A stretch of DNA of 64,000 nucleotides from a candidate division WOR-3 bacterium (GCA_965649265.1 CBFGKC010000006.1:114975-178974), one strand, 5' to 3'. Counted from the stretch's first letter, positions 4,341-55,546 are shown. Notes: generated by a model from the sequence alone, not told the origin. Translations and numbers: made by a program.

Positions 4341-4659
4341 AACCGGATGTTCGCTCGCATTGAGTGGGGGAGAGGGCTTTTGTGAAGGCGAAGAAGGTGG
4401 TTCTAGTCAGTTAAACTTCACCGCCCCCTCCCCCTCCGGATACCGGTGGAATTTTTTGTGCCCGGGACGAATGAGGCGATTGCCTCGGCCCATGCGCCTC
4501 CCAGTCGCTGTTTGTCCCACTTCTGACCCACACTTTGACCGACTGCCGTAAGGGGCGGCTGACCCTCCTTCGGAGTGTTTGAAGTTTGCCTCGATTTCAT
4601 TTTTCAGTAGGCATACTTCCCCGCAATAATCGAAATTTCGCCCTGAATATGCCATGAAA

Positions 4660-4780
4660 AAAACCCAAAATTGGCCATTTTGTCCATCTTTTGTCCCACT
4701 TTTGTCCAGCTTTTTTTACCCCAAAATAGTCGCATTTTCCTCAAGAACGGACTACAATTTTGTGGGGATTCCCGTTTTTT
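4660..4780. repeat. Dispersed noncoding repeat, copy 1 (core TTTGTCCATCTTTTGTCCCACTTTTGTCCAGCTTTTTTT)
   Basis: The core is near-identical to 49613..49665 over about 55 nt. The flanks CCCCAAAAT...CAATTTTG(T/C)GGGGA are also shared with the 49592..49765 copy. No reading frame is conserved between the two copies. Confidence 0.55.
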
Positions 4781-28460: not shown

Positions 28461-29301
28461 CTGGAGAAAGTTCTTGCGGTCTTACATTTGACAAATGTCC
28501 GGTATTTTCGATAACCATTGCCGGGGAGGGTACACCGATCATTTTCAGGTTATTGGCGAGGGTTTTTCGCCTGTGAGCGAAACACTGCCTGACAAGCCTA
28601 GAGAAGGTTGCGGGGTCGTCGGGCCACAAGGGCTTTTCCAGCGGTTCGACTTTTATCGTTATCGAACGAACCTTGGGCACGGGCGCAAACGCGCGCGGGT
28701 CAATCTCAAAGAGTTTCTGGGTTTTCAGGAAAGCCTGCGCGACCACGGAAAGAGCCGAATAGTCATGAGAACCAAGCTGGGCCGTCAACCGCTCGGCAAA
28801 CTCCGCCTGAACCGTAAGCACGGCTTTCTTCCAGAATTTCCTCCTGTCGAGCAGCCAGAAGAGTATCTCCGCCGACAGGTGATACGGAAGATTTCCCAGT
28901 ACCCCGTCCACACATCCATAGCGATCAATATCAAGTTCTCTGACATCCGAAAGGAAAAGCTCGAGATTCTTGTGGAGGTCGGCAAGAACCCGGAGAGTCG
29001 GGAAGCATGTCTCGTCCACTTCCACCGCTACTATTCTCGATACCCTGTCGACAATCAAGCGGGTCAGCTCGCCGGTTCCCGCACCTATCTCGATTACCGT
29101 ATCTTCTTTTTTTGCGCCAAGACTGTCAACGATTCTTTCACCCACCTCTTTCCATCGCAAGAAGTGCTGACCCAGGCGCTTCTTGGGGTGAACATGGATA
29201 ATACCCCCATCTAATTTACTGCGTAAATTAGATGGGGACCCGCTATCCACGGGCACGGTTCTGGTACTTGAATCTCCGTGCAAGGTTTTCCTCTTACCCA
29301 A
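28426..29301 (-). CDS. rsmA: 16S rRNA (adenine1518-N6/adenine1519-N6)-dimethyltransferase
   Basis: The KsgA motifs are present (LGQHFL, VIEIGAGTGELT, LGNLPYHLSAEIL). The ORF has an N-terminal extension of about 40 aa, so the true start may be internal. Confidence 0.8.
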   Translation of the reverse strand: MGKRKTLHGDSSTRTVPVDSGSPSNLRSKLDGGIIHVHPKKRLGQHFLRWKEVGERIVDSLGAKKEDTVIEIGAGTGELTRLIVDRVSRIVAVEVDETCFPTLRVLADLHKNLELFLSDVRELDIDRYGCVDGVLGNLPYHLSAEILFWLLDRRKFWKKAVLTVQAEFAERLTAQLGSHDYSALSVVAQAFLKTQKLFEIDPRAFAPVPKVRSITIKVEPLEKPLWPDDPATFSRLVRQCFAHRRKTLANNLKMIGVPSPAMVIENTGHLSNVRPQELSPGDYVKLIDIIA

Positions 29302-32929: not shown

Positions 32930-33373
32930 GGTTCCTCCTTTGGTTTTGGCATACGTTGGCAGTATAGACAGCCGGTTAAAGTTGTCAATACGGAATTTTC
33001 CGGGTGTACTTAGGTAGAATAGAGGATGTCCTCCTTATCGAGAGGGGGTACTACCCCTCTTCGTTCTTGGATGAGGCTGCGCTTCAAGGAAGCGCCGGGT
33101 GAGGGTTCCTCACTAACTGGAAGGGGGGAGGGGGAATCACTTTCTTCCTACCTTGGTGGAGGGGGCGGGGCGACCTCGTAGGGGCTTACGTGGATGCTTC
33201 TGCATCCGCTTCGCGTTAGGTGAGCCCGCAAAAAAACGGGCTGACCTGAAGGTCGGCTCCTGCACTTTGCGAGGCTGCGCCCGTTAAAGAATTTGATATT
33301 GCAGAGTAAACCTAATTGCTTTGATAATCCTCGATTATCTTCCCATGATCGAAACAAATGTCACCCCAAGTAA

Positions 33374-33793
33374 TTACTTCGTAATTTCTTGGGGACCCCG
33401 ATTGATGTAATCACGGATGATTGTTGAGTGATCAAACGTAATCTGTTCCGGTAATGTATCCAGCTTAAAGACGCGGGCGAGCTTCGCGTCGTCGCCTTCG
33501 CGTAACACACCCTTGCCGTCGGCGGTGAAGACGACGGATACGGTATGGAAGCGGGGATCGCGCGAGGGTTCGGAGTAGACGTGGAACTGCTCGAGATTGT
33601 CCAAATCGAGTCCGGTCTCCTCCTTCATCTCCCTGCGCACGGCCTGCTCGACCGTCTCGCCTATCTCGACGAACCCGCCCGGCAGCGCCCACCCCGGGGG
33701 AGGGTAGCGTCTCTCGACAAGGATAATCCCGCCTTCGTACCGGATGATGCAGTCAACGGTCAGGTATGGGGTTTTGGGCGGCGACCAGGTCAT
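33374..33793 (-). CDS. NUDIX hydrolase
   Basis: The Nudix box is present (LPGGFVEIGETVEQAVRREMKEETGL). Confidence 0.8.
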   Translation of the reverse strand: MTWSPPKTPYLTVDCIIRYEGGIILVERRYPPPGWALPGGFVEIGETVEQAVRREMKEETGLDLDNLEQFHVYSEPSRDPRFHTVSVVFTADGKGVLREGDDAKLARVFKLDTLPEQITFDHSTIIRDYINRGPQEITK

Positions 33794-33810
33794 ACGCTGT
33801 CAGTAATGCA

Positions 33811-33957
33811 ACAATCGTTTTGTTGCCGCAATGACACGGTCATTGCACTCCACACGGACTTGTTGCCGCAATGACACGGTCATCGCACTCCACACGGACT
33901 TGTTGCCGCAATGACGCGGTTATCGCACTCCACACAGACTTTGTTGCCGCAATGGCG
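33811..33957. repeat. Tandem 40-bp repeat x3.6, each unit with an 8-bp-stem hairpin (GCAATGAC-acg-GTCATTGC)
   Basis: The units tgttgccgcaatgacacggtcattgcactccacacggact sit at 33811, 33851 and 33891, with a partial fourth. The copies degenerate from 5' to 3'. It lies between the polA stop and the NUDIX start. Confidence 0.7.
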
Positions 33958-33998
33958 CGGTCATAATCGATCTGCGTAGTTCTTGAATCAAATAATCC

Positions 33999-42650: not shown

Positions 42651-43584
42651 ACTGGGTTGGGCCCTCCTCCTCATCCTGCTTCTCATACTCGTTTCTCTCT
42701 CCCTCCTTATCGGTCCGGCGGGGCTTTCCTTCGGCCTGATTCTGTCTCGCCTGCCGAGAACCTTTCTCACACTCTTTGCAGGCGGCATCCTCGCTCTCGT
42801 CGGCGCGGCGCTTCAGGGGCTTTTGGAGAATCCGCTCGTCGATCCCTACATCATAGGCTCCTCATCAGGCGCAGGTGTCGGTGTTGCCCTTGCCTTGCTC
42901 ACCGGCTGGACATCGGTGTACGGCAGACCCTTGTTCGCATTCGCAGGCGCAATGGGTGCGCTTCTTCTCGTATACTTCTTTGCCCGCATGAAGGGCCGTA
43001 TCTCACGTCTCTCCCTTATCCTATCCGGGGTCGCGGTCGGCTTCGTGGGTTCGAGTCTCGTAATGATTCTTATGGTGCTTTCCCGCTCCGAACTCTCCCA
43101 GATCATCTACCTCCTTATGGGTTCCACCAACATCATCTTCACCCCTCAGGAGTTCTGGACCTTTGTTATCTCCGCATTTCTCTCCATAGTCCTTTGCACC
43201 TGGCTTATCACGCGCTGGCGCTCACTCGACATACTTTCCGCAAACATCGAGTCCGCCGAATCGCTCGGGGTCAACACCCAGCGACTGACGACCGAGGTTT
43301 TCATCATTTCAGCCGTGCTCGTGGGCGTTGTGGTCGCGTTTGCGGGCGCCGTCAGCTTCGTGGGTCTGATAGTTCCCCACATCGCCAGATTCATATTCGG
43401 TCCAAGGCATTTGCGCGTGCTGCCTGCAAGCTTTCTTGCCGGCGCGTCCTTGTTACTTCTTTCAGACATCATCCTCAGGCTTTTTGCCATGCTCACGAAC
43501 GTCTACCTGCCTTTGTCCGTCATCACCACTCTCGCAGGCGTGCCGTTCTTTCTTTTCATCATGAGAAGGAAGTCGAATGTTTGA
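42637..43584 (+). CDS. ABC transporter permease, FecCD/BtuC family
   Basis: It has about 9 TM segments. The FecCD-type conserved loop GAxxxxxGxxQ is present (AGGILALVGAALQGLLENPLVDPYIIGSSSGAG). Confidence 0.75.
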   Translation: MMRARLGWALLLILLLILVSLSLLIGPAGLSFGLILSRLPRTFLTLFAGGILALVGAALQGLLENPLVDPYIIGSSSGAGVGVALALLTGWTSVYGRPLFAFAGAMGALLLVYFFARMKGRISRLSLILSGVAVGFVGSSLVMILMVLSRSELSQIIYLLMGSTNIIFTPQEFWTFVISAFLSIVLCTWLITRWRSLDILSANIESAESLGVNTQRLTTEVFIISAVLVGVVVAFAGAVSFVGLIVPHIARFIFGPRHLRVLPASFLAGASLLLLSDIILRLFAMLTNVYLPLSVITTLAGVPFFLFIMRRKSNV

Positions 43585-44344
43585 GGTTCGTTCTCTTTCC
43601 TTTTCCTATCCCAGACGCCCGCTGTTCGAGAACCTTTCCGTCGGCATCGAAAAAAACGAGTTCGTCTCGGTCGTCGGTCCTAATGGGGCGGGCAAGAGCA
43701 CGTTCGTCAAGCTTCTGGCTAGGCTTCTTTATCCCTCATCCGGCAAGATACTGTTCGAGAAGCGATCCCTCGCCTCTTATCCCCGCCGCGAACTCGCAAG
43801 GCGAGTGGCGTACGTTCCGCAGGAGAGCCATTTTTCCCTCGACTTCACCGTTCTCGAGACCGTGCTTCAGGGACGCCATCCCTATCTGGGCGCGCTCGAA
43901 TTGTATCGCTCTTCCGACTACGCGCTCGCGCGCTCGTCGCTCGAAAGGCTCGGGATACTCCATCTCGCCGGGAAGAACATCAACAATATCTCCTCTGGTG
44001 AGCGCCAGCTTGCCGTCATATGCCGCTCGCTCGTGCAGGAGCCGTCGATCATCCTTCTTGACGAGCCCCTCAATCACCTCGACCTGCACCACCAGCTAGA
44101 AGTCCTTGTCCTTCTCAGGTCCCTTAACCGGGAGGGGATAGGTATCGTTCTCGTCGCCCATGACCTCAATCACGCAGCGCTCTGCTCGAACCGCATGCTC
44201 ATCTTCGCCCAGGGCCGTCTTGCGGAGGATAATTCTCCAGACGTTCTTCTCAATCCGGATATCATCGAACGCTACTGGGGCATCAGACCTCTCGAAGGCC
44301 GCCACCCTGAAACCGGCAAGCGCCAGATATTCCTGCCACTGTAG
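43577..44344 (+). CDS. ABC transporter ATP-binding protein (BtuD/FepC-like)
   Basis: The Walker A motif is GPNGAGKST. The signature/Walker B is LSSGERQLAVICRSLVQEPSIILLDEPLNHLD. It overlaps the permease gene by 8 nt. Confidence 0.8.
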   Translation: MFEVRSLSFSYPRRPLFENLSVGIEKNEFVSVVGPNGAGKSTFVKLLARLLYPSSGKILFEKRSLASYPRRELARRVAYVPQESHFSLDFTVLETVLQGRHPYLGALELYRSSDYALARSSLERLGILHLAGKNINNISSGERQLAVICRSLVQEPSIILLDEPLNHLDLHHQLEVLVLLRSLNREGIGIVLVAHDLNHAALCSNRMLIFAQGRLAEDNSPDVLLNPDIIERYWGIRPLEGRHPETGKRQIFLPL

Positions 44345-44644
44345 ATTACCCCAAAATAATACTCCGTATTCTTTTGGGGACCCCGTAAGACACGAAAGCG
44401 CGAATCCCACACAAGCCCCTTCAGATTTTCCTCAGCCCTCCTCAGCCCCCCTCACTCTCCCCTCAACTCGCCTCAGTTCCCCTCAGCCTTCCTCGGTTCT
44501 TTACGTATTGGCATCGCGCGTGATTTGTAAATTTGTCGTCGATCGCGAACAATCAATCTCTTAATTATTTCTAACCCTTTTATTTGTCGCGGCTGATTAT
44601 TTTTATGAGGATGTGAATCGCAGGCGTAGTTGTGGAAGAAGGGG

Positions 44645-46738: not shown

Positions 46739-47998
46739 ATGGAGCACATCCCACTCCTTGCGAAGCTCGGAATTATCTTCGGCGTCATCATCGTCGTCAT
46801 GGTATTCAGGCTGCCCACGTTCGTGCCAATCCTTTTGGGCGCTGTCGTCACCGGCGTCCTCTTCACCATGCCCGCGCTCGATATCGGAAGAACATTCCTC
46901 GACAGCGTAATAGACTTCTACACCATTGACACCATCCTCATCGTCTGCTTCATCGAGATTCTCGGCAAGATGATGAAGGAGCGCGGCATCCTCTCGCGAT
47001 TCGCCGGCGGCGCCGACTACCTTCTGCGGGGCTCTCGCGTGAGCGTGGTCACGATCCCCATGTTCGTCGGCCTCCTGCCAATGCCGGGCGGCGCCTACTT
47101 CACCGCACCCATGACCGAGGAGCAGATAAAACCCTACGGAATAAAGCCCGGGCTCGCGGTCTACATCAACTACTGGTTCCGGCACGTGTGGGAGTACTTC
47201 TGGCCGCTTTACCCCGGCCTCATCGTGGGCTTCGCCATCCTCAAGGACGTCACCGTCGGCTCCGTCATCATCCACCAGTCGTTCGTGACACTGCTCGCGA
47301 TTGCGGCGGGCGCCGTCATCATCTTTGCCTTCGTCAAGCGCAGGGTGGTGCGGCCGGAGCGTCTTGCGGGCAAGGGTCGTTCTTCCACAAAAGACGTGCT
47401 CTACGGCGCGTTCCCTCTACTCATCATCGTCGTCCTCATCGTGGTCACGCAGGCGCTTGGCTCCATAGTCAAGATTCCCGTTTCCTCCGTCATGCTGATC
47501 GTGCTGGTCTCTTCGTGGATATTCTACAAGGTTCCATTGAAAGGTTCAGGCAAGCTCATTCTTTCCGCGCTCGACTGGCGCGTGATCTCGCTCATGGCGT
47601 CGGTCATGTTCTTCAAGTACATGCTCGACCGTTCGTCCGCGCTGACCGGGCTCGGCCCGATGCTTGCAGGGGCCCCCTCCTCCCTCATCATCGCCATGAT
47701 AATGTTTCTTCCCTTCGTGGTCGGACTCCTCGTGGGACTCAACCAGGCGTACGTTGCCACGACGTTTCCCCTGCTCGCGCCCTTCATCGGCCATGACCCC
47801 GGACTCGTCATGCTCGCGTACGCGTTCGGGTTCTTCGGCGTGATGCTCTCGCCCTCGCACCTCTGCCTTGCCTTATCGCGCGAGTACTTCAAGGCGAGCT
47901 GGGGCTCGGTGTACAAGTGGTTGGTGCCCTCAGTGATCGCGGTCGCCGTCGTGACGTTCGCCGTGTGGTTCTTCCTGTTCCCGCATCCTAAACTATAG
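46739..47998 (+). CDS. Polytopic membrane transporter-like protein (DUF401/ion-transporter-superfamily-like)
   Basis: It is 419 aa with about 10-12 hydrophobic helices. Internal two-fold similarity is apparent. The family assignment is tentative. Confidence 0.45.
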   Translation: MEHIPLLAKLGIIFGVIIVVMVFRLPTFVPILLGAVVTGVLFTMPALDIGRTFLDSVIDFYTIDTILIVCFIEILGKMMKERGILSRFAGGADYLLRGSRVSVVTIPMFVGLLPMPGGAYFTAPMTEEQIKPYGIKPGLAVYINYWFRHVWEYFWPLYPGLIVGFAILKDVTVGSVIIHQSFVTLLAIAAGAVIIFAFVKRRVVRPERLAGKGRSSTKDVLYGAFPLLIIVVLIVVTQALGSIVKIPVSSVMLIVLVSSWIFYKVPLKGSGKLILSALDWRVISLMASVMFFKYMLDRSSALTGLGPMLAGAPSSLIIAMIMFLPFVVGLLVGLNQAYVATTFPLLAPFIGHDPGLVMLAYAFGFFGVMLSPSHLCLALSREYFKASWGSVYKWLVPSVIAVAVVTFAVWFFLFPHPKL

Positions 47999-48002
47999 AT
48001 AC

Positions 48003-48081
48003 CCCCCGTAACACCCCCCCCCGTAACACCCCTCCCGTAACACACCCCCGTAACACACCCCGTAACATGCTCCGTAACACG
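48003..48081. repeat. Short tandem repeat, CC(C)CGTAACAC x6
   Basis: The unit cgtaaca sits at 48007, 48022, 48036, 48049, 48061 and 48073, separated by C-rich spacers. The array lies immediately after the transporter stop at 47998. Confidence 0.65.
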
Positions 48082-48294
48082 CCAACGTCATCCTGAGAAC
48101 CGCAGATGCGGGGCGAAAGGATCGCCTTCAGAAGGCAGTTTCTTTGAACACATGGGATCATTTATGTCTAAGGCGATGGCTTTGCTTGCTCGAAGCAGCC
48201 GTGCAAAGACACCCTCGTCCCACTTTCCCAGAGGGCAGGGGGTGTCCCACTTCGATAGGGGGGAGGGGGGGATTAATGTTTTGAGGGGGTCAGG

Positions 48295-48996
48295 CTAGTG
48301 AATCACCACTAACTTTGAGGTGTAGTCAATGTAGAACGAGCTGTCGGGAACGATGAATCTCGTAAAATAGATGCCAGCAGGCAAGGTCGAGAAGTCTTTC
48401 TGTATTGAGTGTGAACCTGCGCAGTAATTACCACTTAGTATTGTCTCGATTAACGCTCCCCGGAAATCGTAGAGAGCCAGGTGAACTACCATGGGTTTCG
48501 GTATCGCGTAGTTCAAACCGGCAGTTCCTGAGACTATTGAAGGGAAGTGCGGCGGTCTTTCTAACCGCAACTTTCGCGATGCGGTGTCGTTTCTTGCAAC
48601 GGTATCGTATGGATTCGAGACCCGCGCGAAAATCATGAAGGAATCAACGTCTTGAGAAGAGAAAGGCTTGTGAGAGTAGACGACCGTCTTTCCGGGCGCA
48701 AGCGCGTTTACGTACAACGTGTCTGTGTAAACCACCTGGTTTGTGGTAAGAGATGTTATCGTGAAGTAAAAATCGGCATAGGTGTGATGCGAGCTGAAAC
48801 TCTCTACGGTGCATCCGATCTTGATCTTACTATCAGGATACAAGTCATAGGCATAAAGACTACCAGCATAATTGATACTTGTTATCCAGAGGTCAAGGCT
48901 GTCGCCTGCCTGCAAACCTCTCTCAGGCGTGTTCGCTGCATTCATCGCGCTTGCTGAGACAAGAAGAAGTGTCGCTGTCAGAATTTTATTTCCCAT
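48295..48996 (-). CDS. Secreted protein with T9SS CTD
   Basis: The signal peptide is MGNKILTATLLLVSASAMNA. The C-terminus is AGIYFTRFIVPDSSFYIDYTSKLVVIH. Confidence 0.5.
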   Translation of the reverse strand: MGNKILTATLLLVSASAMNAANTPERGLQAGDSLDLWITSINYAGSLYAYDLYPDSKIKIGCTVESFSSHHTYADFYFTITSLTTNQVVYTDTLYVNALAPGKTVVYSHKPFSSQDVDSFMIFARVSNPYDTVARNDTASRKLRLERPPHFPSIVSGTAGLNYAIPKPMVVHLALYDFRGALIETILSGNYCAGSHSIQKDFSTLPAGIYFTRFIVPDSSFYIDYTSKLVVIH

Positions 48997-49141
48997 TCGG
49001 TTTCATATCCTCTCCATTTTGAAGCCGCGGGTATTCCCACTCTGGATAATCAGCATATTCAATAACGCCGTTCAGTCAACCTTGCAGGCTCGACGTTAAC
49101 GCCTCAAGCGTTTGCGTGAGTCAGGTCAGCCCGAATGGTGC

Positions 49142-49535
49142 GGGCCGACCTAAAGGTCGGCCCCTACGTTGTGTTAGTCATAAGGTGCATTTGTACCCTT
49201 CGTTCGCCCTTCGGTGGCTTCGTAGCCACTCGGGGTTGCATGTGCGGAACTACGTTCCACGAAGACTATTTCCAATTAAGGAGTATCGCCAGGGGTGATT
49301 TCGTCATCTTCGATTGCGGAAGGAACTTCCGCCCATGCGGATTCCATCCGCTCGCTCGCCAACGACAATCTAATGAATCCCCCTTGCCTTTCGGGCGTTC
49401 CCCCTTAATAAGGGGGATGTTACGGCCCCCCTTCGATAAGGGGGGAGCGGGGGGATTCTCCCGGTCTTCGTCTCTCGTTTAATGGGAGGGAAAGTCAACC
49501 CCTCCTCTTAATCCTCTTCGCAAGGGGGAGGAGGT
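49142..49535. other. Cluster of perfect GC-clamped hairpins in noncoding DNA
   Basis: The hairpins are GGGCCGACC-taaa-GGTCGGCCC (49142..49163), GTGGCT-tcgt-AGCCAC (49214..49229), CCCCCTTA-at-AAGGGGG (49400..49416), CCCCCCTT-cgat-AAGGGGGG (49426..49445) and CCTCCTC...GAGGAGG (about 49501..49535). Confidence 0.55.
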
Positions 49536-49591
49536 TTTACTTTCAGTCGGTAAATTTCCATAATTTTCCTCCCGAGACCGTCCGTTTTTTG

Positions 49592-49765
49592 CCCCCAAAA
49601 TGCCCTCAAAACCCCGGTTTTGTCCATCTTTTGTCCCACTTTTGACCAGCTTTTTTTTCACGAAAATTGCCCCAAAATGCCCGATTTGTCCATCTTTTGA
49701 CCATCTTTTGTCCCACTTTTTTTATGCCCCACAAAATTGCTGCGCAATTTTGCGGGGACCCCATT
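49592..49765. repeat. Dispersed noncoding repeat, copy 2 (TTTGTCCATCTTTTGTCCCACTTTTGACCAGCTTTTTTT plus internal partial duplication)
   Basis: The core matches 4666..4727. It carries an extra half-copy (TTTGTCCATCTTTTGACCATCTTTTGTCCCACTTTTTTT) and ends in the hairpin CCCCACAAAATTGC-tgc-GCAATTTTGCGGGG followed by ACCCC. Confidence 0.55.
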
Positions 49766-49803
49766 AGAGAGATATGAATTCTAAAACATAAGTGATTGTA
49801 AAA

Positions 49804-50007
49804 GAATATCTTAAACAAATTCAAGTCGCCTTATTGGCGTCTGAGGGATGAAATCCCTGGGCTTAAGTTATTCTATAACTTCAAGATTGAAATAACTTAA
49901 ACAAGAGGTGTCACTTATTGTGACTTATGAAACAGAGTTTCATCGGCTTAAGTTGTTACATAACTTTATAATTTGAATAACTTAAGCAAATCGCCGCCAC
50001 TTATTGT
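49804..50007. repeat. Three tandem modular palindromic units (about 65 bp each)
   Basis: Each unit has a long hairpin bounded by GCTTAAGTT...AACTTAAGC. A second hairpin follows with a conserved loop CTTATTG and a variable stem (GTCGCC / GTCAC / GCCGCCAC). A small third hairpin completes each unit. Confidence 0.55.
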
Positions 50008-50098
50008 GGCGGCGATAGCTCGCATATACGCGGAGTCTTTGTGCTCATTGGGCCATCCGCGGGGGCCGACTCCATAACCCCTTGTCGGATGGTAAGTT

Positions 50099-51097
50099 CT
50101 ATTCGTTGTATCGGATGTCGTAATCCCTCGATGGCTTCGTCTCCTGCTCTGGGAACAGGTCGGTATGCACCAAAATTCCGTCCGCAAGCAGCGCCGAACC
50201 CTGCGAGTCGTGACCGTCGACTTCGTATAAGTCGCCTGATCCCGGAGTATACGCGTCATCGAGGTCGGCCTTGGTGTACACCGCTAAGAGTTCCTTGGCC
50301 TTCTGCCACGAAACGGAGCCGTGCTCCTCGCCCTGCATTGCTTCAACTATATAGGATTCCAATAACTTATGCCAATAACTCTTCATCATCGTGTGGGAGC
50401 TGAAGAGGTCGATGCCCACAACCTGGTCGCCCACGCAAACGATTACGCCTTTCATGTTTGTATTGTTTGCCGCAAGGCCTTCGAGCTTTTTCCAGTATTT
50501 GTCGCGGTCACCTTTGTAGGAACTGGAAGTGTAAATATCGTTAAATGCGCCGGTTGATGAAGTCTCGCCCATCACTTTTTCCTGGTTTTCCGCGACCTTG
50601 TTCCAGACTTCGGACTGGCTCTTGTTCGCGCGCGCGTTGGCCCTGACAGACGGAGAAACGTTGATGTCGGCCTTCGCGAACTCCTTTGAGGAACCCGACC
50701 AGCGTCCGTGCTCGGTGCAGTACACGGAAACCTCCAGCCAGCCTGAACTTGGAGGAAGGATCAGGTCGTTTTCAATCATCCGGTCCTGCTTTGCGCCGAG
50801 TATTACCTCGCCCGCCATCGCGAACACCGGGTTAGAACTTTTGTTCTTTACGAGGACGGTGTTAACCTCGCCCTCGTTTTTTTCCTTGACGACCACAAGA
50901 CCCTTATCAAGCGCGTCCTTGAGGATCATAAAGCTTTCCGCGTCGCCGGTGTAAGAGAGGGGGTAGATACGTAAGTTCTCGGCTTCAGCATAGTTAAGAA
51001 TCGTGACCTTGCCAGGAATGGCGTTTACCACAGACTCGTCTCCTGAGGTGGACCCCAGGAGAGCGAGCGCTAAAGGTATGAGAAATTTCATTTCCAA
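50099..51097 (-). CDS. Hypothetical secreted protein
   Basis: The signal peptide is MEMKFLIPLALALLGSTSG. The product is 332 aa with no T9SS CTD and no recognisable domain. Confidence 0.45.
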   Translation of the reverse strand: MEMKFLIPLALALLGSTSGDESVVNAIPGKVTILNYAEAENLRIYPLSYTGDAESFMILKDALDKGLVVVKEKNEGEVNTVLVKNKSSNPVFAMAGEVILGAKQDRMIENDLILPPSSGWLEVSVYCTEHGRWSGSSKEFAKADINVSPSVRANARANKSQSEVWNKVAENQEKVMGETSSTGAFNDIYTSSSYKGDRDKYWKKLEGLAANNTNMKGVIVCVGDQVVGIDLFSSHTMMKSYWHKLLESYIVEAMQGEEHGSVSWQKAKELLAVYTKADLDDAYTPGSGDLYEVDGHDSQGSALLADGILVHTDLFPEQETKPSRDYDIRYNE

Positions 51098-51102
51098 CCT
51101 CC

Positions 51103-51738
51103 TTAGTTATCGGTAAGTTTGAAATTTACGGGAACCGAAATCTTGACGGCCAGCGGTTTTTCGCCCTGCATTGCCGGTGTAAAGCGCGCGTTGCGAACGG
51201 CTTCCTCCGCGGCGTTATCAAGCTCTTCATATCCGGAACTCTTCAATATTTGTGTGTCGAAGACAAGCCCTTGTTCGTCCAGTGCCGCACCGACTATGAC
51301 CAATCCCTCAACTTCCAATTTACGCATCCGTTCAGGATACTTGATATCCATTCCCCCGATAAGTTGCGGTTTTTTTGCACTTGCAGGTAAAAAGGGGACA
51401 TCGTTGATGGTTCTGATGATTCTGTCGCCGCCGATGATTCCGGGGTCAATCAAATTTGTATTTCCAGGGAGAATGGAATCAGCGGTCTGGCCAGGTGCAG
51501 CTTTCTCAATCTGGACCACTTTGTTGTCGATGGGAGGAGGAGTGTTGGGGTAGTTCTCGACGGTGATTCCGCCCCAGTCGATGATATCGCTGCCTGAAAC
51601 CGGTTTAACGTTCAGGGGTTTGATCGTAAAGCTTCCAAGGAACGCGAAAATTAGTATAGACGCTCCCAGCGCTCCAATCACTCCCACTTGCAGTCTTTCG
51701 GTTGCATGTTCGCGGATGGTGGCAATTTTTGCTTGCAT
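51103..51738 (-). CDS. tonB: TonB-family energy transducer (C-terminal TonB domain)
   Basis: The ORF is trimmed to the ATG at 51738 (MQAKIATIREH), preceded by AAGGAGG. A TM anchor is present (VGVIGALGASILIFAFLGSF). The C-terminal domain reads IGGMDIKYPERMRKLEVEGLVIVGAALDEQGLVFDTQILKSSGYEELDNAAEEAVRNARFTPAMQGEKPLAVKISVPVNFKL. Confidence 0.7.
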   Translation of the reverse strand: MQAKIATIREHATERLQVGVIGALGASILIFAFLGSFTIKPLNVKPVSGSDIIDWGGITVENYPNTPPPIDNKVVQIEKAAPGQTADSILPGNTNLIDPGIIGGDRIIRTINDVPFLPASAKKPQLIGGMDIKYPERMRKLEVEGLVIVGAALDEQGLVFDTQILKSSGYEELDNAAEEAVRNARFTPAMQGEKPLAVKISVPVNFKLTDN

Positions 51739-51827
51739 TTCATCCTCCTTTGCATTGTTATACATCTTGTCCCAAGGTTTATTCCGCTCTCCATGATTTG
51801 TAATCGTGAATCGCATAAGCTTATGCA

Positions 51828-52178
51828 AATGCGCCCCCGGCGCTAGCCCTCCTCAGACCCCCTCAGACCCTCCTCAGACCCTCCTCAGACTATCCTCAGA
51901 CTATCCTCAGACTATTGGGGGCTCAACACCTTGCAGAATTCTATTCTGCGCATGCGCCTCCGGCGCTAGCCCTTTGGATAAGTAGAAATGAAATGGCGGA
52001 AGCGCAGCTTGCGCCCAGCGCCTCCGGCGCTCCTCCTTAGATCGGTAATAGTGAAATCGCAGAAACCCCATGGGCTTCTGCGCATGCGCCTCCGGCGCTA
52101 GCCCTTTGGATAAGTAGAAATGAAATGGCGGAAGCGCAGCTTGCGCCCAGCGCCTCCGGCGCTAGCCCTGACTCAACA
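51828..52178. repeat. Composite noncoding repeat element, locus 2 (6x CC(C/T)xCCTCAGA units, then 2.5 copies of the GCGCCTCCGGCGCT-containing module of about 85 bp)
   Basis: The CCTCAG-type units lie at 51848..51917. The modules at 51946..52030 and 52086..52170 are near-identical to 14766..14850. It sits in the divergent region between tonB and the SBBP gene. Confidence 0.65.
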
Positions 52179-52260
52179 CACAGTCGAAACAATCTGAATA
52201 GCATCTTCCTAAGTCATCTATAATATGCGGAGCTTTTTTTGTAAGTATTTATGCCGCATA

Positions 52261-52288
52261 TTGACAAATTACCCTTACATCGTATCAT
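52261..52288 (+). promoter_or_regulatory. sigma70-like promoter (TTGACA-16-TATCAT) preceded by an 8-bp inverted repeat overlapping the -35 element
   Basis: ttgaca is at 52261..52266 and tatcat at 52283..52288. The inverted repeat ATATGCGG (52223..52230) / CCGCATAT (52254..52261) flanks it. An AAGGAGGAG Shine-Dalgarno site precedes the ATG at 52314. Confidence 0.45.
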
Positions 52289-52313
52289 TTTGCAAACGAG
52301 AAGGAGGAGTATT

Positions 52314-53723
52314 ATGAAACCTATGTGTTTTCTTTCAATAACGTTTTCGTGTATATTTTTTTTCCTCTCCACGGTCGTACGCGCCGAGGATGTTCCCGTT
52401 AACGTCTGGAACAAGGTCTATGATTCAGGCAAGAACGACGTACCTTACGCTATTGCGGTGGATGATTCGGGCTACGTTTACGTCGCGGGACTTTATTACA
52501 ATGGTGAGAACAGCGATTTCAGAACCATAAAATTCGACCCGGACGGGGAGATTGCATGGAACAAAACATTCGGGCCTGCAACCGAAGATATTGCCTGGGC
52601 GGTTGCGGTCAGCAGTACGGGTTCGGTATACGTTGCAGGTGAATCCAAGGATGCCTACGAACTGGTCAAATATGACTCGAAAGGAACCGAACTCTGGAAC
52701 AAATCATACGAATCCCAGTATAAATATTCGGACGCGGCGTACGGGATAGCCCTGGATGAGGATAACGGTTTTTGTTACCTTACCGGCAAGGTTCACAACA
52801 CGGCTACCGGAAACAACGATTACAGGACAATAAAATGCGATACATCCGGCAACAAGAAATGGGACAACAAATACGATTCGGGCGCAGATGACTGCGCATA
52901 CGGGGTGACAGTAGACAAAGACGGTAACGCTTACGTGACAGGCGGCATCAACTCCGACACGAGTGTGATGACCGTCAAGTATGGTCCTACCGGAAATACC
53001 GTCTGGAAAAAAACATACTCCGGAGGCGATAAAAATGTTGGATATTCCATAATAACAGATAATGGCGGTTCTTTTTATGTCGCCGGAATGTCGAAAAGCA
53101 GTGCCGGGAATATGGATTATCGCACCGTCAAATACGATCTTGCCGGAAATATGAAATGGGAGAAGCTATATGGATCGAGTAACAATGAGTTTGCCTGTGA
53201 TGTTGCGCTTGATGACAAGGGTTTCTTGTACGTAACAGGTTCATATTACGAGGGGTCATATCCTTTCTCCAGAACCATGAAGTACGATTCTCTTGGAAAC
53301 ATCCAGTGGGAGTTTGCTTATGATCAAGGCTCGAGGGAAGAAAGCGAGGGCGTAGCCGTGGATGCTGACGGGAACATCTACATCATCTGTAAATCTTACA
53401 ACGGCAAGGATAACGATTTCAGGCTTTTAAAATATCGGCAGTCTTCAGGGATAGCGGAAACGTTTTTTAAACCTGAAGATATGAATCTGGAACTTGAAAA
53501 TAAAGGATCCTTTTGGACTGTAGCCTACTCTCTTGTGGATTCCGGCCCAATAGAGCTGTCGATTTTTGATGTCAGAGGTACGAGGGTTGCAACGTTAGAT
53601 CACGGTTTTCGAAGCTCAGGCACACACTCTCTTGTCTGGATTCCGGAGGTAAATGGGGTATATTTCCTTAAGCTTTCGAAAGGGGCGAGCGTCGAAAACA
53701 GGAAAGTAGTGGTAATTCGCTAG
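52314..53723 (+). CDS. Secreted SBBP-type beta-propeller repeat protein with T9SS CTD
   Basis: The ORF is trimmed to the ATG at 52314 (MKPMCFLSITFSCIFFFLSTVVRA). The repeats follow the pattern YDSG..D.AYAIAVDDSGYVYVAG......DF.TIKYD.DG...W. The C-terminus is GVYFLKLSKGASVENRKVVVIR. Confidence 0.65.
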   Translation: MKPMCFLSITFSCIFFFLSTVVRAEDVPVNVWNKVYDSGKNDVPYAIAVDDSGYVYVAGLYYNGENSDFRTIKFDPDGEIAWNKTFGPATEDIAWAVAVSSTGSVYVAGESKDAYELVKYDSKGTELWNKSYESQYKYSDAAYGIALDEDNGFCYLTGKVHNTATGNNDYRTIKCDTSGNKKWDNKYDSGADDCAYGVTVDKDGNAYVTGGINSDTSVMTVKYGPTGNTVWKKTYSGGDKNVGYSIITDNGGSFYVAGMSKSSAGNMDYRTVKYDLAGNMKWEKLYGSSNNEFACDVALDDKGFLYVTGSYYEGSYPFSRTMKYDSLGNIQWEFAYDQGSREESEGVAVDADGNIYIICKSYNGKDNDFRLLKYRQSSGIAETFFKPEDMNLELENKGSFWTVAYSLVDSGPIELSIFDVRGTRVATLDHGFRSSGTHSLVWIPEVNGVYFLKLSKGASVENRKVVVIR

Positions 53724-53887
53724 TTTCCAAACAGGGGCTTTATAATAACTATTAATCGGTGCGAAGCTAAGCCGATTTTTTAGTCACGGAGGCCTTGACT
53801 AAATGCTGAATGTTGGTATATTTTCAAGAGTAATCTAGTCGTGTTGGGAATAAGAGGGCCAGAAAACAATAAAACTTTGGAGGTTAT

Positions 53888-55546
53888 ATGTCAAAAAACA
53901 AGTTTTTGTTACTGTGCATAGTTACCCTCGTGACAATGAGTTCCGGGTATGCTGTTTTGCCTCCGGAGGAGGTTTGGAACGTACCATACAGCTCAGGGGA
54001 CTTCGTGAGAGGTTATGATCTCGCAGTTGATGCACAGGGAAATGTATTCGTCGCAGGCGAGTACGATAACGGCATGGATAATGATTTTCTTATCATCAAA
54101 TATGACCCTTCAGGTACGGTATTGTGGTACAGGATTTTCGACTCCGGTGGAAATGATGAACCGCAGTCGATAATCCTTGACGCCGGCGGTAACGTTTACG
54201 TCTGCGGCTCTTTCGTGGATACTCTCGTACCCGGAACCGTTCACGCAAGACTTCTTAAGTACAATTCCGCCGGGGACAGCCTTTTAAACGCATCGTACGG
54301 TTTTTCGGCTTTCACCAGGCTGTACGCCGTAACCATTGATAAATCGGGCGGCCTTTATCTGGCCGGCTACACGACGAATCCATCGAACTCGGATTTTCTA
54401 TTCATGCAATGCGATACGATTACCGGCGACACTCTCTGGACAAAAGTTTATGATTCAGGAAGGGAAGAGAGTGTCTACGGTATTGCGGTCGATACGCTCG
54501 GTAACATTTTCGTGACCGGGACTGCAGGAGCAGATGCCGATACCACGGACGTAAGGACCATTAAATACGGTCCTACTCGCACTATTTTGTGGAACGAGCT
54601 CTACAACTCCGGCAGCTACGATGACGCCGGGGATCTTTCGCTTGACGGACAGGGCAACGTTTACGTCGGCCTTTCGAGCTACAACTCGTCAGGGAATGCC
54701 GACTATAGATTAATCAAGTACGACTCCGGCGGTGGTATTGTCTGGAACAAATATTATGACGCCGGCTCCGAGGACTGGCTGAATGACGTGATTTGCGATG
54801 AATCGGGTAACGCCTACATAACCGGTATGTCACTAAGCGGGCCGACCAACAGTGACATAAGAACCATGAAATATACACCTGACGGGGATATCGAATGGTA
54901 TAAGGTCTACGACTCTGGAACCCGTTTCAACGCCTTGTTAGGAGATGGTGCCAGTGGCATTGTTCTTGACGGACTCGGCTATGTTTATGTTACTGGTTAC
55001 TACGCGACACCAGGCAGCGTGAGTATCCGCACAATAAAGTACAGGCAGTTTTTTACCATAGCCGGTAAAACAAGTCAGCCCTATGCTACCTTGAATCTTG
55101 ATGGAGCCGTTACTGCCCAGACAATGTCCGATTCGAACGGCTACTACCAGTTTCTCGATCTTTCTTGCGGAAAGGATTACACGGTTACACCCAGTCTTGA
55201 TGGTTATACCTTTGAACCGTCATACAGGAAATATTCTCCTCTTATAAGCCACATGTTTCTTGAGGATTACACTGCTACACCGACTGGAATTGAAGACCTT
55301 TCGCAAATACGAGCAATTTCGCTCGAGGTATCCGCAAATAATGTAAGATACACTATCGATGAGCCCGGATTCGTAAAGCTTAGCGTTTACGATGCATGCG
55401 GCCGCAATGTTGCGTCCCTTTTCGAAGGCATCCTTTCACCGGGAGAGTTCAATGCCGACTGGAAACCACAGGCTGCCGGGGTCTACTTCGTCAAGTTGGA
55501 CGTGTCGAACAAATCGGTAACAAAAAAGATAACTTTCATAAAGTAA
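53888..55546 (+). CDS. Secreted SBBP-repeat protein with CarboxypepD_reg-like domain and T9SS CTD
   Basis: A GGAGG site is followed by the ATG. SBBP-like repeats are present (GYDLAVDAQGNVFVAG ... DFLIIKYDPSG). A carboxypeptidase-regulatory-like segment follows (YQFLDLSCGKDYTVTPSLDGYTFEP). The C-terminus is GVYFVKLDVSNKSVTKKITFIK. Confidence 0.65.
   Translation: MSKNKFLLLCIVTLVTMSSGYAVLPPEEVWNVPYSSGDFVRGYDLAVDAQGNVFVAGEYDNGMDNDFLIIKYDPSGTVLWYRIFDSGGNDEPQSIILDAGGNVYVCGSFVDTLVPGTVHARLLKYNSAGDSLLNASYGFSAFTRLYAVTIDKSGGLYLAGYTTNPSNSDFLFMQCDTITGDTLWTKVYDSGREESVYGIAVDTLGNIFVTGTAGADADTTDVRTIKYGPTRTILWNELYNSGSYDDAGDLSLDGQGNVYVGLSSYNSSGNADYRLIKYDSGGGIVWNKYYDAGSEDWLNDVICDESGNAYITGMSLSGPTNSDIRTMKYTPDGDIEWYKVYDSGTRFNALLGDGASGIVLDGLGYVYVTGYYATPGSVSIRTIKYRQFFTIAGKTSQPYATLNLDGAVTAQTMSDSNGYYQFLDLSCGKDYTVTPSLDGYTFEPSYRKYSPLISHMFLEDYTATPTGIEDLSQIRAISLEVSANNVRYTIDEPGFVKLSVYDACGRNVASLFEGILSPGEFNADWKPQAAGVYFVKLDVSNKSVTKKITFIK

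Follow-up and report, generated by a model that had tools for sequence, protein, structure and literature searches.

Short repeats that lie in the spaces between bacterial genes include the mosaic intergenic elements, that is, the bacterial interspersed mosaic elements (BIMEs) of E. coli, the pneumococcal BOX elements (boxA-boxB(n)-boxC) and the Neisseria intergenic mosaic elements (NIMEs), together with the cyanobacterial short tandemly repeated repetitive (STRR) sequences, whose short tandem units occur in many intergenic regions of one lineage. Repetitive extragenic palindromes (REPs) are another such kind, and those of the GTAG super-family are characterised by an unpaired GTAG beside a short palindrome (Di Nocera et al. 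2013, PMC3733652). Here we analyse a gap of 1.1 kb (positions 48997-50098) in a 64,000-nucleotide (nt) stretch of DNA from a candidate division WOR-3 bacterium (GCA_965649265.1, CBFGKC010000006.1:114975-178974), which we call the window. The gap lies between the stop codon of a minus-strand ARPP-1 gene (PF20208, 50099-51097), upstream of it, and the start of a minus-strand gene for an orphan protein of 233 amino acids (aa) downstream (48295-48996), and an earlier note, made from the sequence alone, had drawn attention to its hairpins. We consider it probable that the gap is a patchwork of lineage-specific hairpin-forming repeats lying beside ordinary expression signals, and not a single functional RNA gene, and its repeat families look undescribed yet akin to known kinds. 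Four types of element have many copies scattered through the lineage, namely the 11-mer arrays, the 35-nt hairpin, the GTAG palindrome and one or two of the short palindromes. The features are as follows, with their basis in brackets.

49052-49079, minus strand: candidate sigma-70-like promoter TTGACT-16-TATGCT for the 233-aa gene (consensus match only)
49137-49170, minus strand: GTAG-tagged REP-like palindrome, CGTAG-GGGCCGACC-TTTA-GGTCGGCCC-GCACC (BLAST and fuzzy matching)
49197-49470, no strand assigned: cluster of short perfect palindromes (hairpin enumeration)
49214-49229, 49246-49258, 49316-49332, 49337-49351, 49399-49417 and 49426-49445, no strand assigned: members of this cluster (enumeration; 49246-49258, with a 5-bp stem, by reading)
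49499-49545, plus strand: terminator-like GC hairpin followed by TTTTACTTT (terminator scan, site 49512-49545)
49585-49726, plus strand: two tandem 66-nt blocks of 11-mers (repeat analysis and pattern scan)
49727-49761, plus strand: 35-nt hairpin of the family CCCCA-N9-C(TNC)G-N9-GGGGACCC (alignment of copies)
49805-49989, minus strand: 85-86-nt minisatellite of variable copy number (repeat spacings, relatives)
49990-50016, minus strand: intrinsic terminator of ARPP-1, ATCGCCGCCAC-AATAA-GTGGCGGCGAT and then TTTGCTT (six relatives)
50017-50098, minus strand: conserved stem-loop in the 3' untranslated region (3'UTR) of ARPP-1, ACCATCCG...CGGATGGC, then GACTCCGCGTATATGCGAGC (relatives compared)
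4640-4775, plus strand, outside the gap: second 11-mer array, lying between convergent genes, with an incomplete CCCCA...GGGG hairpin (self-comparison)

As in BIMEs, BOX elements and NIMEs, short modules occur here in variable order, one of them tandem and of variable copy number (the 11-mers, three to seven or more units in the arrays counted) and another a hairpin, with dispersed intergenic copies in both orientations at 3-13 loci per metagenome-assembled genome (MAG). The tandem unit, however, consists of 11 nt of phased A- or T-tracts, the hairpin stem is hypervariable and not conserved, and no resemblance to any of these families is visible by eye, so that the likeness is one of kind only. 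With the STRR sequences the locus shares arrays of 7-11-nt units, as the heptamers CAATCTT, GAAATTT and AGCTGTC accompany the 11-mers in related MAGs, but unit length and sequence are other ones and the arrays here are tied to hairpin modules. The palindrome at 49137-49170, in turn, is comparable to the GTAG REPs and to the REPIN (REP doublet) elements with their REP-associated tyrosine transposases (RAYTs) (PMC3733652; Bertels and Rainey 2011, PMC3116915): it has a 9-bp stem and an unpaired GTAG, is multi-copy in the sampled loci, in both orientations and downstream of genes, and related genomes carry Y1_Tnp genes flanked by GTAG palindromes. Unlike a REPIN, it forms a single unit at this locus, with no doublet. 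The eight phyla of the GTAG survey (PMC3733652) probably do not include WOR-3.

The excess of hairpins in the gap is not a chance effect. When only perfect Watson-Crick hairpins are counted and a stem of 6 bp or more is required, the whole region has 9, compared with 0.96 +/- 0.95 in dinucleotide shuffles, and 49100-49545 has 6, compared with 0.52 +/- 0.71, and kilobase 49 has the highest hairpin density in the window; the statement in the earlier note that at least five perfect hairpins lie at 49142-49535 thus holds, and their number is non-random. In the folding check that it had proposed, both strands folded far better than shuffles, with z-scores of -4.7 (plus) and -6.8 (minus) for 49100-49550 and of -6.6 (plus) and -6.2 (minus) for 49780-50060. 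That note had missed the most repetitive part, in which phased 11-nt arrays (49585-49726) are followed by the 35-nt hairpin (49727-49761).

Comparison with relatives points to rapid change. Orthologous loci were fetched through homologues of the ARPP-1 protein, the close ones among which carry a candidate division WOR-3 annotation: L076 (protein more than 90% identical), L066 (85%), and L072, L074 and L075 (58-62%). From 50200 to 49521 the window is colinear with L076 at 77%; beyond that point only two patches match, one of them inverted. The search for compensatory changes in relatives had a divided outcome: the terminator and 3'UTR are conserved in six relatives, the terminator with covarying stems, while the hairpin cluster at 49170-49520 could not be aligned with L076 or L066, though its flanks align. 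Content and copy number, in fact, change between close relatives.

Phased 11-mer arrays and the 35-nt hairpin family

Each 66-nt block begins with A-tract 11-mers (GCCCCAAAATG) and continues with three T-tract ones (TTTTGTCCATC, TTTTGTCCCAC, TTTTGACCAGC), which makes a phased array of the type TTTTGTCCNNC. Self-comparison of the window gave 97.5% identity over 40 nt between 49618-49657 and the array at 4640-4775, in the same orientation. When contigs from GTDB, one genome per species, were scanned with a 29-nt degenerate pattern of three successive 11-mers, 65 stretches matched: 55 lay in six WOR-3/Stahlbacteria MAGs, at 3-13 loci each, and the other 10 were simple triplets from unrelated taxa. 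The usual order within an array is a G-rich long hairpin, 11-mers of the CCCCAAAA type, TTTTG(T/A)CCNNC or TTTTGGGGAGC 11-mers, a T-run and the 35-nt hairpin, with three to seven or more T-tract 11-mers per array (3-7 under a strict definition). The arrays combine with other modules (the GTGACGAG motif, arrays of heptamers, the 35-nt hairpin and G-rich hairpins), and the order varies. In some genomes, GCGACGAAGTCGC hairpins, a GTGACGAG...CCTGACGAG motif and arrays of heptamers come in addition. The two blocks hold 3+3 units in the window, 3+3 in L076 and 4+6 in L066. Because many arrays sit at or near the ends of the retrieved stretches, MAG assemblies probably break at these repeats.

A motif of about 30 nt, GTGACGAGTNNNAYTCAAACCTGACGAGTT, lies behind many arrays of related MAGs (L002, L008, L013, L016, L046, L048, L052, L061 and others) and is often followed by a TTGACA-17-TAGAAT promoter, with a tRNA-like gene next to it in L061; it is absent from the 64-kb window. 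A hammerhead-like reading of GTGACGAG...CCTGACGAG in related loci was discarded, as the position of G12 is lacking by inspection and the motif is absent from the window.

The 35-nt hairpin could be aligned in 30 distinct copies, all equal in length, four of which are in the window (29205, 33364, 44349 and 49727). Three of these four stand without 11-mer arrays (29205-29241, 33364-33398 and 44349-44383), and the one at 44349 begins 5 nt past the stop codon of a plus-strand open reading frame (ORF), 43577-44344. The ends of the hairpin are invariant (5' CCCCA, 3' GGGGACCC) and its centre, C-T-N-C-G, nearly so, but the stems, which have no common sequence, are nevertheless paired in 86% of cells, compared with 68% in shuffles and 28-50% in slid controls. 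Nine of the 14 pairs covary by double changes, with 80 doubly changed cells where 23 were expected. Compensating stems, which the earlier note had reported for the hairpins with a TTATT loop, are real in those three local hairpins and far stronger in this family. G-U combinations, moreover, occupy 1 of 420 cells, and since there are almost no such pairs and the stems are perfect Watson-Crick ones, this points to DNA-level palindromes and not to selection on an RNA from one strand. The constraint on the hairpins acts at the DNA level, and it argues for double-strand-symmetric DNA palindromes or for single-stranded DNA hairpins. Most loops have the form C(GNA)G when the complementary strand is read, and this is a very stable type of DNA mini-hairpin loop. 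Tentatively, we suggest that the 35-nt hairpin and the phased 11-mer arrays could together be an undescribed modular repeat system of WOR-3/Stahlbacteria, whose hairpins may be substrates of an enzyme that acts on single-stranded DNA and recognises base and loop only, or may be formed anew by a templated palindrome-forming process, and not copied from a master as in classical REPs.

Several functional readings of the arrays were considered. Their tandem direct repeats have an 11-nt period in helical phase, as iterons do, but a role as iterons of a replication origin or a ParR-type centromere was rejected on account of the many loci per genome and of the lack of a rep or par gene nearby. A viral origin was rejected as well, six viral contigs having simple TTTTGTCCCCC triplets only, with the other modules missing. 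In these unrelated contigs (L108-L113, from IMG/VR), 3-4 tandem TTTTGTCCCCC 11-mers lie at a conserved spot past a gene end, and they look like iterons or operators, so that the 11-mer theme recurs as a probable protein-binding site outside WOR-3. Promoter UP-elements, suggested by related loci that show an array, then a promoter, then a gene or probable tRNA, were also discarded as a general rule, as the arrays have no orientation bias (26 in the same and 21 in the opposite orientation to the next gene, by a crude ORF call), which makes a general promoter role unlikely, and neither window copy faces a gene.

In an alternative reading, a DNA-binding protein specific to the lineage, be it a regulator or one that bends DNA or organises the nucleoid, binds at the 11-mer arrays and perhaps also at the triple TTAAGTTAT motifs. 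The region would then be regulatory or architectural DNA and not junk. E. coli BIMEs bind IHF and gyrase, and the 11-nt period, with A-tracts and then T-tracts, is near one helical turn. At several loci the arrays lie just upstream of TTGACA-17-TAGAAT promoters, one of these belonging to what its sequence suggests is a tRNA gene; the phage triplets described above are similar to the arrays and iteron-like. The missing orientation bias toward downstream genes speaks against this account too, however, and so does the fact that both window copies face away from genes or lie between gene ends, that unit sequence and number drift freely between relatives, and that a candidate binding protein was not identified. 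We therefore regard such a role for the arrays as unlikely.

The GTAG element and the short palindromes

The REP-like element at 49137-49170 has a perfect stem and the unpaired GTAG at one end, which is kept in the copies listed. In loci from related WOR-3/Stahlbacteria genomes it gave 26 BLAST matches and, in both orientations, 22 fuzzy matches, the latter in 594 kb of MAG loci, a sample in which repeat-rich spots are over-represented. The 64-kb window has one good copy and, near 33263, a degenerate one, and the equivalent position in L066 is occupied. Among the short palindromes, TCCCCCTTAATAAGGGGGA is found in 11 further copies, L065 and L076 also have CCCCCCTTCGATAAGGGGGG, and the double hairpin 49316-49351 is inverted in L076. 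The rest of the cluster is unique in the sample and could not be aligned with L076. Two hairpins do have the CCCC(C)TTA arms that were described for this cluster, but their loops, given as containing TTAAT, are AAT in one and CGAT in the other.

With E. coli RayT as the tblastn query and Pfam as a second step, Y1_Tnp (RAYT-like) ORFs came to light in two related WOR-3 MAGs. One such gene (L011, 1-1020) is flanked by at least five copies of the GTAG-tagged CACCCTGAGAGGGTACGCTAC; the other (L051, 3214-3900) lies beside palindromes of the GTAGGGGC type and has a GTAGGGGCGACGCATGCGTCGCCCCTAC palindrome in frame inside it.

If the gap is indeed a patchwork, it would be a hotspot where lineage-specific interspersed repeats built up between two genes. 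Read on the minus strand from the stop codon of ARPP-1, it would comprise the 3'UTR stem with the terminator, the minisatellite, the 35-nt hairpin, the two 11-mer blocks, the short perfect palindromes, the GTAG REP-like element at the far end and the promoter of the next gene. The palindromes may have spread as single-stranded DNA hairpins through RAYT-type (HUH, Y1) transposases, and the tandem parts may expand and contract by slippage or unequal recombination. Any benefit to the host would be of the REP or BIME kind: protection of transcript ends, termination or insulation, DNA bending, or protein binding.

We acknowledge that several observations weigh against this interpretation. For about half of the short palindromes (those at 49214, 49246 and 49337 and the hairpins of 49447-49535), the 594 kb sampled contained no further copy, and the status of such palindromes as repeats is inferred from turnover. 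No RAYT was found by tblastn in the 64-kb window, the only part of the source genome that was read. The iteron-like triplets of the phage contigs make specific protein binding of the arrays possible. Finally, L076 retains the hairpin of 49499-49545, though with another stem, and this would suit a transcribed element as well.

This last observation belongs to a second alternative, in which the plus strand of 49140-49545 encodes a structured RNA some 400 nt long that ends at 49499-49545, and the modules at 49805-50016 are a second RNA or a regulatory 3'UTR. The strong folding z-scores, the TTCG-containing loops on the plus strand and the terminator-like site at 49512-49545, retained in L076 with another stem, are all compatible with it. 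The plus strand, however, folds less well than the minus strand, the stems consist of perfect Watson-Crick pairs with no wobble, some of the hairpins are dispersed repeats, and the body of the proposed RNA could not be aligned with L076 despite flanks at 77%, one unit being inverted. A consensus scan found no promoter-like site upstream on the plus strand, and the Rfam check did not help this reading either, the whole window giving no match at gathering thresholds and the region only chance-level matches at E-value thresholds. As for the hairpin at its supposed end, in L076 the equivalent, with its changed stem and TTTTTACTTTCAGTCG, sits downstream of a convergent FlgD_ig protein gene. With no plus-strand gene to terminate in the window, the hairpin at 49499-49545 is either a relic or the end of a transcript, and we think it probably a relic or an antisense terminator. 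A structured RNA is therefore very unlikely in our judgement; what remains of the functional RNA that the earlier note had envisaged is the terminator of ARPP-1 at 49990-50016, and not a dedicated structured RNA or a riboswitch-like gene.

The end of ARPP-1 and its minisatellite

The terminator at 49990-50016 is the third of the "CTTATTG-loop" hairpins of the earlier note. Its position is kept in six relatives, in which the stems covary, and like other rho-independent terminators it is a GC-rich stem-loop just past the gene with a T-run on the ARPP-1 sense strand, but this run (TTTGCTT) is weak. Hairpins with a TTATT loop and differing stems do exist as described, at 49825-49842, 49910-49924 and 49990-50016, and so do the small third hairpins. 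From their sequence we read the other two TTATT-loop hairpins as local paralogues of the terminator. Relative to it, one shows a paired C-to-T and G-to-A change with loss of the outer stem, and the other a symmetric deletion of two bases in both arms; with stems of 4-5 bp, these two minisatellite paralogues are probably ineffective as terminators.

The conserved 3'UTR stem-loop next to it (50017-50098) is 100% identical in L076 (1808-1890) and shows compensatory changes in L066 (4874-4955) and in L075, L072 and L074, where it lies directly past ARPP-1. All ARPP-1 loci compared have the stem after the stop codon, the motif GACTCCRCGTAGCGAGC, and a GC hairpin with a T-run, the stem of this hairpin differing in each relative. 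The stem, of 7 bp with compensatory changes, is kept down to 58% protein identity and is found only behind ARPP-1, and the element could be a regulatory one or a small RNA derived from the 3'UTR.

Between the terminator and the 35-nt hairpin lies the minisatellite, each unit of which contains an AT-rich palindrome (GCTTAAGTTATT...AATAACTTAAGC), a weak hairpin with an AATAA loop and a small hairpin. The module length of about 65 bp that had been given for it is mistaken, the real period being 85-86 nt (spacings of 86, 85, 85 and 86). Three modules bounded by GCTTAAGTT...AACTTAAGC had likewise been reported; the palindromes are present, but as two full copies (49861-49902 and 49946-49987) and one partial copy, the first module having the right end only (49805-49818). 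The 85-nt units number about one in L066 (hairpin only, without the AT-rich palindrome), about two in L076 and about three in the window. No further copy of the AT-rich palindrome was found in the 594 kb of related DNA, and the idea of a dispersed miniature inverted-repeat transposable element (MITE) was rejected, as a scan of Joint Genome Institute (JGI) metagenomes gave only 28 unrelated low-GC matches. Confined as it is to one locus, the palindrome is therefore read as part of a young minisatellite, which may have originated from the terminator and the AT-rich sequence behind it by inverted and then tandem duplication.

The least likely of the readings we weighed takes the palindromes as site-specific recombination sites (attC-like sites or transposon ends) that exchange cassettes between ARPP-1 and DUF401: each relative has its own gene content here, and imperfect palindromes with conserved parts and variable stems would fit, but the eight genes scanned between 44.7 and 56.7 kb (ARPP-1, TonB, DUF401, type IX secretion system (T9SS)-tail proteins, SBBP and V-ATPase) include no integrase, transposase or other recombinase, the 85-nt units hold no ORF, the AT-rich palindrome is at a single locus and not dispersed, the dispersed elements occur in all gene contexts without cassette structure, and no attC core (R''/L''/L'/R') was seen in the GCTTAAGTT...AACTTAAGC arms on reading their sequence. 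The suggestion of recombination sites in the earlier note accordingly finds neither a recombinase among the neighbouring genes checked nor cassette ORFs. When 46739-51828 of the window is compared with L066, L074 and L076 for what lies between ARPP-1 and DUF401, which is convergent to it, L074 has no gene, L066 has RmuC, L076 has two FlgD_ig/T9SS-tail genes and the window has the orphan 233-aa T9SS-tail gene, and as gene content is different in each relative, making this a synteny breakpoint, a loose link to rearrangement is possible.

Neighbouring genes and significance

The 233-aa gene has a ribosome-binding site, GGAGAGGA, before its ATG (start at 48996), and its protein a C-terminus that resembles a secretion tail; homology to the L076 genes in this position was rejected, the C-terminal sorting domain being all that they have in common. 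Seven small ORFs inside 48997-50098 gave no family match in a Pfam search, in agreement with the view that the region is non-coding. That a gap of 1.1 kb is unusual here holds in part: it is the longest stretch of the window without an ORF of at least 150 aa, two gaps of about 1.46 kb excepted, which exceed it, and at least one of these appears to contain smaller genes. BLAST searches of the whole region against phage and plasmid collections gave no match, and a scan for tRNA and tmRNA genes found none.

Other gaps of the window are also laden with repeats (47998-48295, 33000-33400, 33800-33960 and 44420-44500), which include about seven tandem CCCCGTAACAC units, four 43-nt tandem repeats (ACTTGTTGCCGCAATGACACGGTCATTGCACTCCACACGG), about seven CCTCAGCCCNC 11-mers and G-rich hairpins. 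Repeat-filled spacers, then, seem to be a genome-wide habit. Further along, two SBBP-repeat genes (52251-55546) separate TonB from the V-ATPase operon in the window, unlike in L066, L074 and L075.

These results alter no major concept, and the diversity of the 35-nt stems together with the phased 11-mers is the sole part with some novelty. For annotation, they mean that hairpin-dense gaps of WOR-3/Stahlbacteria are not to be called RNA genes on folding scores alone. GTAG-REP/RAYT elements are not known to have been reported from WOR-3, and our findings suggest that elements of this type are present in this uncultured phylum. In the 35-nt family, stem sequence is free and pairing is kept, which makes the family well suited to the question of what an enzyme that recognises hairpins actually reads.

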